From IMG/VR virus record IMGVR_UViG_2874933748_000003: 22,597 nucleotides of DNA. The stretch is one strand, 5' to 3'. Numbering within the stretch: position 1 is the stretch's first letter; each line of letters opens with the position of its first letter. This stretch comes from a virus (lineage: Duplodnaviria; Heunggongvirae; Uroviricota; Caudoviricetes). A program made the position numbers and the translations under genes. Of the stretch, positions 19,508 through 20,911 are shown piece by piece. Under the pieces are notes generated by a model, which saw nothing but the letters and a program-made list of their open reading frames with translations, ran no database searches and was not told the DNA's origin.

Positions 19508-19930
19508 TCATTACCGCCCTTTCGGGCGGTCTCCTGATGATTTGAGGGTGCAGAAATCCCTCCGGTTAAGGATTAAATTTTTAACAGTGCTAAATTTAAT
19601 TATTCAGTTCTGGATTTTGTCGCCCTGCGTATCCGCGCTTTCGCGTTACGCTCAATCTGTATCAGCTTTTCTATATTTCTCCGCCTTTCCTGTTCCTCCT
19701 GGCGCAATAGCCTTACATCATCTGCCAGTCTGGTTTCTCTTTTTGCCACAGAGAGCATCCAGTCAAACGGCTCCACAACCGCACCGCAGATTTTACAGCG
19801 GACCTGACGCTCTTTTTCGTCAACCCGGACAGAGGCGTGATGGCAATATGGTCTTTCCGATGGTTCATAAAGAAAATTAACCTGATTACGTGGGTCATCC
19901 TCTTTTACCGGAAATAAAACGATATTGCTT

Positions 19931-19940
19931 AACTCATCTT
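19931..19940. repeat. Target-site duplication of IS1 copy 2, left copy (AACTCATCTT)
   Basis: Identical 10-mer repeated at 20709-20718 directly flanking the IS1 ends. Confidence 0.85.
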
Positions 19941-19995
19941 GGTGATGCTGCCAACTTACTGATTTAGTGTATGATGGTGTTTTTGAGGTGCTCCA

Positions 19996-20271
19996 GTGGC
20001 TTCTGTTTCTATCAGCTGTCCCTCCTGTTCAGCTACTGACGGGGTGGTGCGTAACGGCAAAAGCACTGCCGGACATCAGCGCTATCTCTGCTCTCACTGC
20101 CGTAAAACATGGCAACTGCAGTTCACTTACACCGCTTCTCAACCCGGTACGCACCAGAAAATCATTGATATGGCCATGAATGGCGTTGGATGCCGGGCAA
20201 CTGCACGCATTATGGGCGTTGGCCTCAACACGATTTTACGTCACTTAAAAAACTCAGGCCGCAGTCGGTAA
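19996..20271 (+). CDS. insA: IS1 InsA
   Basis: 91-aa ORF nearly identical to the copy 1 insA. Confidence 0.9.
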
Positions 20272-20693
20272 CCTCGCGCATACAGCCGGGCAGTGACGTC
20301 ATCGTCTGCGCGGAAATGGACGAACAGTGGGGCTATGTCGGGGCTAAATCGCGCCAGCGCTGGCTGTTTTACGCGTATGACAGTCTCCGGAAGACGGTTG
20401 TTGCGCACGTATTCGGTGAACGCACTATGGCGACGCTGGGGCGTCTTATGAGCCTGCTGTCACCCTTTGACGTGGTGATATGGATGACGGATGGCTGGCC
20501 GCTGTATGAATCCCGCCTGAAGGGAAAGCTGCACGTAATCAGCAAGCGATATACGCAGCGAATTGAGCGGCATAACCTGAATCTGAGGCAGCACCTGGCA
20601 CGGCTGGGACGGAAGTCGCTGTCGTTCTCAAAATCGGTGGAGCTGCATGACAAAGTCATCGGGCATTATCTGAACATAAAACACTATCAATAA
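20190..20693 (+). CDS. insB: IS1 InsB frame
   Basis: 167-aa ORF identical to the copy 1 insB translation. Confidence 0.9.
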
Positions 20694-20708
20694 GTTGGAG
20701 TCATTACC

Positions 20709-20718
20709 AACTCATCTT
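20709..20718. repeat. Target-site duplication of IS1 copy 2, right copy (AACTCATCTT)
   Basis: Matches 19931-19940. Confidence 0.85.
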
Positions 20719-20911
20719 CTGGTTTTATTTCCATGCTCCTCTCCTTTGATGCGAATACCAGCGGTAATTGAAGCCTGATAGCTAATTTTACTCACAGTAC
20801 CGCCTCCTGAAATTTCCCCTGATAAAACGCCAGCACGCGCTGCATAGTGAGGTAGCCTGAGTTTAACGGACACTCCTTCCTGAAATAGAATGGCATCAGA
20901 AGGAGCTAATA

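Follow-up and report, generated by a model that had tools for sequence, protein, structure and literature searches.

Taken as a whole, the evidence makes us highly confident that IS1 transposed into a gene of the phage protein family PHROG 1621 in an ancestor of the sampled Shigella sonnei lineages, and that this was followed by an IS600 deletion, the IS1 event being most likely neutral. IS1 entered codon 9 of a small accessory gene in a lambdoid (Rac-like) prophage, made a 10-bp target duplication and inactivated the gene. IS600 entered the 3' end of a DUF977 gene in or near the same ancestor and later, in the lineage of the DNA studied here, recombination between IS600 copies joined the DUF977 remnant to an integrase remnant; this would have removed the 5' part of the integrase, the early-left operon, the immunity region and the replication genes. 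On the present data the IS1 and IS600 insertions may have happened in either order. The analysis covers a stretch of 22,597 nucleotides (IMG/VR record IMGVR_UViG_2874933748_000003), called the window throughout, whose features are collected in Table 1.

Table 1. Position of the insertion sequences, the interrupted gene and the other prophage features in the window
Feature	Position	Strand	Remarks
Tail genes M, L, K, I, J, lom, tail fibre	4966-12252	-	
tRNAs	14149-14459	-	
DUF1367, YbcO, DUF1133/Q	14649-16089	-	
IS1 copy 1	16425-17192		Direct orientation relative to copy 2, 2.75 kb away
Hok/Gef toxin	within 17285-17497	-	Downstream gene, same transcription unit
DUF551	17895-18260	-	Downstream gene, same transcription unit
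221-aa hypothetical protein	18260-18925	-	Downstream gene, same transcription unit
HNH endonuclease	18922-19287	-	Downstream gene, same transcription unit
DUF4014	19289-19507	-	Downstream gene, same transcription unit
3' fragment of interrupted gene	19600-19940	-	Codon 9 (position 3) to stop 19600-19602
Target-site duplication AACTCATCTT, left copy	19931-19940		10 bp
IS1 copy 2	19941-20708	+	768 bp, apparently intact; antisense to interrupted gene
insA	19996-20271		Within IS1 copy 2; open frame, 91-aa InsA
insB	20190-20693		Within IS1 copy 2; open frame, 167-aa InsB
A6C frameshift motif TTAAAAAAC	20245-20253		Within IS1 copy 2
Target-site duplication AACTCATCTT, right copy	20709-20718		10 bp
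5' fragment of interrupted gene	20709-20734	-	ATG 20732-20734, codons 1-8 plus 2 nt
Ribosome-binding site AAGGAGAGGAG	20736-20746	-	Just upstream of ATG
DUF977 (ydaW-like) 3' remnant	20792-20847	-	Last 17 codons MQRVLAFYQGKFQEAVL plus stop; by alignment to FDAARGOS_944 (L007)
IS600 copy	20848-22106	+	No 3-bp duplication; joins DUF977 remnant to integrase fragment
Tyrosine-integrase 3' fragment	22112-22597	+	Prophage end; PF00589, E = 1.3e-13

IS1 interrupts an otherwise intact prophage gene

Members of the IS1 family are about 768 bp long, with imperfect terminal inverted repeats (GGTGATGCTGCCAACTTACTGAT / GGTAATGACTCCAACTTATTGAT), carry insA and insB' connected by a -1 frameshift at an A6C motif, and are flanked by a short direct target duplication. 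The second IS1 copy of the window has all of these features. It measures 768 bp and has canonical termini (GGTGATGCTGCC... and ...GGAGTCATTACC), its terminal inverted repeats (GGTGATGCTGCCAACTTACTGAT... / ...ATCAATAAGTTGGAGTCATTACC) are likewise canonical and its two ends, compared over their first 23 positions, agree at 15 of them in the pattern expected of IS1; both reading frames and the frameshift motif are in place, and a perfect repeat of 10 bp lies on its two sides. The matching elements of E. coli belong to the IS1A family according to their RefSeq annotation. The other copy of the window differs from this one at 2 of 768 positions (99.74% identity), has no target duplication and replaces about 133 bp found in relatives.

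Target duplications of IS1 are usually 9 bp long, with cases of 8-11 bp reported; the 10 bp found here are atypical for the element and do not contradict its identification. A literature search on IS1 target-duplication lengths gave nothing useful. A 10-bp match between flanks is expected by chance at one site with a probability of about 4^-10 (1e-6), and the duplication comprises exactly 10 bp, not 9 bp and a chance base, because the empty site holds the 10-mer once.

When IS1 and one copy of the repeat are removed in silico, a minus-strand ORF of 357 nt is obtained that encodes 118 amino acids (MEIKPEDELSNIV...RATKSRTE). This restored ORF is identical, at 357 of 357 nucleotides, to the gene of WP_000403784.1 in E. 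coli FDAARGOS_944, an intact allele of the same length and with the same start codon. The FDAARGOS_944 locus contains the 10-mer once and is a true empty site, and the flanking 2.75 kb are 99.75% identical to those of the window. The ATG start agrees with the RefSeq annotation of the intact gene, both in FDAARGOS_944 (L007) and in a further locus (L002). Of 5426 complete E. coli genomes, 1669-1700 (about 31%) carry the intact gene, and the exact 118-aa protein is encoded in at least 1000 contigs of the protein collection. Intact homologues with 97.5-99.2% protein identity are found in Stx2a-converting phages, phage ArgO145 and other coliphages; that of ArgO145 (gp17, YP_009907882.1), also a member of PHROG 1621, shows 99.2% protein identity and has the same length and start codon.

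The preliminary description of this DNA had proposed an IS1 copy with a perfect flanking duplication, a gene split 8 codons after its start, and a clean restoration in which an ATG at 20734, preceded by a ribosome-binding site, is joined to the frame ending at 19600. The duplication, the start with its ribosome-binding site and the joined frame are all as proposed, the break lies 2 nt beyond the eighth codon, and uninterrupted alleles exist in nature, one of them without a single difference from the restored gene.

The 3' fragment encodes a Zn ribbon (C38, H40, C54, C57) and a long basic helix. Among ORFs initiated by ATG, GTG or TTG, the only one remaining in frame is a GTG ORF of 58 aa (19600-19776), which has no Zn ribbon, and none was found in the ORF list of the window that runs from IS1 into the gene. 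Since this sole remaining ORF is devoid of the zinc ribbon, the disrupted copy is null; the IS1 insertion inactivated it.

The insertion is common to the sampled S. sonnei lineages

Using the neighbouring 221-aa protein, we found ten complete chromosomes (4.8-5.0 Mb) and searched them with 30-nt junction probes. The left junction of IS1 is present in all ten and both junctions in nine; in the tenth, another IS is nested in the IS1 site. None of the ten chromosomes probed contains the empty site. The set includes CP019689, which is S. sonnei 75/02 of lineage IIIc (PMC5447701), and CP026802.1, which is S. sonnei ATCC 29930 (PMC9430107). Outside this set, the 58-aa residual ORF is annotated as SS53G_0022 in S. 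sonnei 53G, a strain of lineage II (PMC5447701). One of three NCBI contigs with this ORF (ADUU01000004.1, L004) matches positions 13622-20709 of the window at 99.76%, the junction included, and appears to be a contig of 53G; a literature search on the 53G WGS accession gave no match. The junction can be read at the protein level too, as a partial protein of S. sonnei (P0063) with the sequence ...SVSWQHHQ/DELSNIV... is a translation over the exact boundary between IS1 and the gene.

Because the junctions are common to 75/02, ATCC 29930 and the 53G contig, the insertion predates at least the split between lineages II and III. The junction is absent from all complete E. coli genomes scanned; in E. 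coli JNEC-KY204 an IS1 is found in the vicinity, but not at this position. A scan of the GTDB species-representative contigs gave 0 matches, Shigella being likely not a separate species in that collection. In one further chromosome (CP054892.1, L009; 4.59 Mb) the orthologous module is uninterrupted, at 98.8% identity. The insertion had been described as recent. This is right in evolutionary terms, the duplication being perfect and the ORF free of substitutions, but not at the level of the strain, as the junctions occur throughout the ten chromosomes and in the 53G contig.

The interrupted gene encodes a conserved protein with a predicted zinc ribbon

The restored protein matches phrog_1621 (PHROG 1621, function unknown) over residues 1-117 with E = 3e-56, and it has the profile match, the conserved site and the helix motif that mark the family of WP_000403784. 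Searched with the family profile, 1.84 billion cluster representatives yielded 1640 relatives at E <= 1e-3, counted as cluster representatives at 50% identity, 262 of them at E <= 1e-10. Across 35 close and 54 distant members, the residues of the zinc site (C-x-H...C-x-x-C) are well maintained, with C38, C54 and C57 invariant and H40 present in at least 90%; H39 is not conserved. The Cys/His cluster noticed earlier is therefore present in the restored protein, but only H40 of its two histidines is conserved. At the C-terminus, the motif LRxEExxRRxNIEKLIQIERNAKARIR is almost invariant in the 35 closer relatives, down to 45% overall identity; L98, N104 and R108 are the only positions of this motif that stay at or above 90% in the 54 distant members.

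We modelled with AlphaFold2 a protein 96% identical to the restored one (P0001), from an alignment of 34 sequences. The model (mean pLDDT 75) consists of a beta-hairpin at residues 43-54 with the ligands and a single helix at residues 63-117 (pLDDT 83-95), which bears out the basic helical C-terminus of the preliminary description. The size of the family, its conserved residues and the modelled fold indicate that the gene is real and, as judged from the sequences, under purifying selection. The protein is likely a single-zinc ribbon, and its basic helix of about 55 residues probably forms a coiled coil; our best guess for its role is a zinc-stabilised, oligomeric early accessory factor that would bind nucleic acid or a host protein. 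In the closer relatives, the basic C-terminal helix NIEKLIQIERNAKARIRR is nearly invariant across genera and appears more conserved than the zinc ribbon.

No significant match to the protein was found in Pfam, NCBIfam, the PDB sequences or the fold search. The best candidates are the ribbons of TFIIB and S27e. PF08271 (Zn_Ribbon_TF, TFIIB) scored 21.5 bits against a gathering threshold of 29 (E = 1.7e-4) and matched at E <= 0.01 in just 6 of 54 family members, PF01667 (S27e) scored 13.8 bits against a cut-off of 24.5, and the Foldseek match to 1pft had E = 0.28. These weak resemblances reflect a shared pair of zinc knuckles on a beta-hairpin with a four-ligand site; the first knuckle is C-x-H in our protein in contrast to the C-x-x-C of TFIIB and S27e, and a long basic helix follows the ribbon here, which those families do not have. 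PDB sequence searches, whether started from the protein itself or from the profile of its family, gave only generic long helices or coiled coils and zinc ribbons below threshold. An analogy with the C4 zinc finger of DksA/TraR, in which a coiled coil lies N-terminal to a CxxC-x17-CxxC finger, was considered and rejected: there is no zf-dskA_traR Pfam hit at E <= 1, nor is that family among those listed for the 54 members, and the domain order is reversed, with the ribbon preceding the helix. The anti-phage defence profiles of PADLOC-DB gave no hit at E <= 1, and a literature search on the protein accessions and the PHROG identifier gave no match. PHROG 1621 is nevertheless a very common phage family with a strikingly conserved basic helix, and it might repay experiment.

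The gene belongs to an early-right operon truncated by IS600

The gene order around intact relatives defines the native context. In FDAARGOS_944, a cI-like repressor gene is followed by the divergent cro, ydaT, a replication protein gene, ydaV, DUF977 and our gene, and then by variable nin-type genes, hok, DUF1367, DUF1364, DUF1133 (Q-like), four tRNAs and lysis genes; L002 and eight other loci (L008-L015) share this order. The gene is thus natively internal to a lambdoid early-right (pR-type) operon, before the nin region and Q, and it does not, contrary to what had been supposed, head its operon, since intact relatives place it after cro, ydaT, the replication initiator, ydaV and DUF977. Both E. 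coli and S. sonnei ATCC 29930 show, on the upstream side of the intact gene, the arrangement of the Rac-type early-right operon (ydaS/cro, ydaT, ydaU, ydaV, ydaW/DUF977), whereas in the window the whole part from cro to DUF977 is deleted. The Rac prophage of K-12 itself presumably does not carry this gene. ArgO145 has it in the early-left region, preceded by gam, recT, exo and others, the last of them an Ea22-like gene. An upstream ORF (...GEEHGNKTRR*) overlapping the start codon, in the manner of the Ea22-like gene of ArgO145, was rejected as a candidate neighbour; the alignment shows DUF977 instead, with its stop at 20792-20794 and a 57-nt spacer to the ATG. On the other side, several of the downstream genes (17285-19507) overlap at their stop and start codons. 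The rest of the window also holds IS600 copies, and its content fits one lambdoid prophage.

The IS600 copy upstream of the gene starts at 20848 and not, as previously given, at 20847. Its flanks (...gcatag / IS600 / ttgtga...) do not show the 3-bp duplication of a simple insertion. In ATCC 29930 (CP026802.1, L025) the same IS600 lies at the same point of DUF977 with CTA on both sides, the 5' part of DUF977 and ydaV are found upstream of it, and DUF977 is otherwise intact; this is a simple insertion. Because the duplication is missing from the window and is present in ATCC 29930, the copy in the window is a recombinant, and the simple insertion of IS600 came before the recombination between IS600 copies. 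The junction of IS600 with the integrase, as in the window, is present in 8 of the 10 complete chromosomes. Since the integrase is on the plus strand at the prophage end and the early-right operon is on the minus strand, the recombination is most simply understood as a deletion. In related chromosomes a 311-aa PF01171 (ATP_bind_3) gene adjoins the integrase fragment; we take it to resemble ttcA, which presumably flanks the attachment site of Rac. The earlier proposal that IS600 had cut off the native promoter is correct in that the promoter region is lost, but this took two steps and not a single cut. The loss of the promoter is independent of IS1.

Consequences of the insertion and alternative explanations

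In at least two S. sonnei chromosomes the gene has a second copy: CP104423.1 and LR213449.1 each contain the disrupted copy (L016 and L021) and an intact one encoding the identical protein (L008 and L015). The intact copy resides in a second prophage remnant, in the order ydaV, DUF977, the gene, QueH, hok, Rem. The loss of the gene is redundant, because an identical protein is encoded intact on the same chromosome. The prophage is dead as a result of the IS600 deletion, and the IS1 hit is most likely selectively neutral. IS1 is classically polar in both orientations and a polar effect on the downstream genes is plausible; it is moot, since the prophage already has neither promoter nor immunity region. 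A consensus scan for promoters and terminators gave nothing above the expectation from shuffled sequence.

We regard it as quite improbable that the disruption was selected, whether through loss of the gene or through silencing of the HNH endonuclease or the Hok toxin to the benefit of Shigella. This idea could draw on the breakage of the gene family at no fewer than five positions, by IS1 or by an ISEc52-like IS3, in S. sonnei and S. flexneri, and on the presence of the insertion in all sampled S. sonnei chromosomes. However, the intact identical-protein copy in at least two S. sonnei genomes means that the function was not eliminated, the promoter and immunity region of the prophage were lost anyway, and S. 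sonnei went through a bottleneck, by which neutral IS sites become fixed (PMC7373316). IS600 and IS1 sequence alone makes up about 31% of the window, so that more than one hit is to be expected in prophage DNA that is not essential, and the extreme IS density of prophage remnants is the probable reason why the family was struck independently several times in Shigella. For a wider proposal, in which the protein is a new zinc-ribbon/coiled-coil early regulator that binds nucleic acid or a host factor and the repeated IS hits in Shigella reflect selection against its expression, we see a small chance.

IS elements can create hybrid or outward promoters, and all of the downstream ORFs are still intact, as would be expected if an outward promoter of IS1 drove DUF4014, HNH, DUF551 and hok after the loss of their own promoter. 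Such a regulatory role is very unlikely: insA and insB face away from the downstream genes, the consensus scan of IS1 and of the 20719-20846 remnant revealed nothing promoter-like on the minus strand, the known polarity of IS1 in either orientation speaks against it, and relatives lacking the IS have downstream ORFs that are just as intact. That IS1 came from a recombination event involving IS1 copies, or formed one side of a composite element with copy 1, is suggested by the two direct copies that bracket the segment from hok to the gene and by the missing duplication and the replaced segment of about 133 bp at copy 1. It is extremely unlikely for copy 2, which is flanked by a perfect duplication of its own, and empty sites have the duplicated sequence only once; moreover, the segment between the copies retains the native gene order, with 98.8-99.7% identity to uninterrupted loci, so it has not moved. 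As to an assembly artefact, repeats of high copy number such as IS1 and IS600 often break or mis-join assemblies, and many draft contigs stop at these very junctions, but identical junctions in ten independently assembled complete chromosomes, together with draft sequences that read through the junction (P0063, L004), leave it with a next to negligible probability.

Relation to known IS-driven gene loss

The transposition of IS1 into the PHROG 1621 gene, followed by the IS600 deletion, corresponds to a process described for Shigella, in which IS1 enters a coding sequence and the resulting pseudogene is fixed across lineages, in a genome that carries about 290-300 IS sites (Hawkey et al. 2020, PMC7373316). 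In that survey IS1 accounts for 42-59% of the insertion sites across the species surveyed, and about 50% of the pseudogenes of S. sonnei are directly caused by IS (PMC7373316). The IS600-mediated rearrangement that belongs to the same process adjoins the IS1 hit here. The differences from the cases of Hawkey et al. are not substantial: an accessory gene of a prophage was hit and not a metabolic one, and the identical protein is still encoded by a copy elsewhere on the chromosome. The event is thus one of ordinary IS-driven prophage decay, of a kind already known and with its junctions already present in public reference genomes. The IS1 junction, GCTTAACTCATCTT abutting GGTGATGC, is a clean marker that could serve to order the events of genome reduction in S. 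sonnei, and the two IS600 states, the simple insertion with CTA and the recombinant joined to the integrase, are clean markers for the same use.

The classical polar mutations of gal and lac are IS1 insertions. Our case is like them in having a 768-bp IS1 with a short direct duplication that interrupts a polycistronic unit, and differs from them in that the duplication is of 10 bp in place of the usual 9 and in that the promoter of the operon is already gone.

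Disruption of the gene family in Shigella

Besides the IS1 insertion in the window, the gene family is disrupted at no fewer than five further positions in Shigella (proteins P0050, P0057, P0058, P0062 and P0080; loci L003 and L005). In S. sonnei an IS1 element breaks the gene at about codon 59, and codons 77 and 81 are the sites of ISEc52-like IS3 insertions, in opposite orientations, in S. flexneri and S. sonnei. Another ISEc52-like break, at about codon 37, is found in L003 and L005, two NCBI draft contigs of which at least one comes from S. flexneri K-227, and in both the gene is truncated at the equivalent of window position 19825. 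A break at codon 77 is caused by an element of unassigned type.

The disrupted gene can share a chromosome with an intact one. Both CP104423.1 and LR213449.1 carry the IS1-disrupted gene (L016 and L021, respectively) together with an intact copy (L008 and L015, respectively), about 0.7-1.1 Mb away, and each intact copy encodes a 118-aa protein identical to the restored one. Their setting is another prophage remnant, in which the gene order is ydaV, DUF977, the gene, QueH, hok and Rem, with the modABC genes adjoining.

The basic C-terminal helix of the protein (residues 84-110 of the restored sequence, LRxEExxRRxNIEKLIQIERNAKARIR) is nearly invariant in homologues from Serratia, Erwinia, Yersinia and Pluralibacter with just 45-60% overall identity (alignments A1 and A3). 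Its conservation far exceeds that of the residues surrounding the zinc site, suggesting that the helix has a conserved binding partner.

Insertion sequences in the window

Features of the window, by position
Feature	Position	Strand	Remarks
IS600, partial	1445-2619	-	
IS21-type transposase gene fragment	2620-3292		rve and Mu-transposase C-terminal matches
IS600	3293-4552		
IS21-type transposase gene fragment	4553-4879		HTH matches
IS600 5' fragment	12227-12708		482 bp; adjoins full IS600 copy
IS600, full copy	12706-13966		
Prophage tRNA cluster	14149-14459	-	Gly-UCC, Thr-UGU, Arg-UCU, CAU-anticodon tRNA
IS1 copy 1	16425-17192		
Hok/Gef toxin ORF	17285-17497	-	PF01848, E = 1.7e-21
Strong terminator-like hairpins	17746-17810	+	About 250-500 bp from Hok/Gef ORF, on its upstream side
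Perfect GC-rich hairpin	19513-19530	-	ACCGCCC-GAAA-GGGCGGT; 5 nt upstream of DUF4014 start codon
IS1 copy 2, target duplication	19931-19940 / 20709-20718		
IS600 beside the interrupted gene	20848-22106		

Set against the empty site, the target duplication of IS1 copy 2 is 10 bp long; the usual length for IS1 is 9 bp. Copy 1 lacks such a duplication, its flanks reading ...gagacaaaa / aaaaaaacc..., and it replaces about 133 bp of the uninterrupted relatives L002 and L009, which suggests an IS1-adjacent deletion. In another locus, L020 (CP151301.1), Mu-like transposase genes stand in place of the far junction of copy 1. The two copies are in direct orientation and bracket, in the manner of a composite element, a 2.75-kb segment running from hok to the gene fragment.

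The IS600 beside the interrupted gene also lacks a target duplication, whereas in S. sonnei ATCC 29930 (L025, CP026802.1, 815-2078) the same IS600 lies within DUF977 with CTA on each flank, as a simple insertion. The DUF977 remnant was therefore fused to an integrase remnant by a later IS600-IS600 recombination. The CTA-flanked and recombinant states could be used as lineage markers.

Elsewhere, IS elements are nested and in tandem (1445-4879 and 12227-13966), with the IS21-type transposase gene split into fragments by two IS600 copies. IS600 and IS1 sequence alone makes up about 31% of the window.

Other features of the prophage

The terminator-like hairpins lie on the strand opposite to the Hok/Gef ORF, an arrangement that would fit a type I toxin-antitoxin locus of the hok/sok type kept in the dead prophage. 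The GC-rich hairpin occupies the position expected for the DUF4014 ribosome-binding site, and no T-run follows it; it might act in translational control or RNA processing.

The tRNA cluster is downstream of the Q-like gene, and its CAU-anticodon tRNA is annotated as Ile by RefSeq in relatives. Directly after the cluster, an IS600 stands at the expected place of the lysis and head genes.
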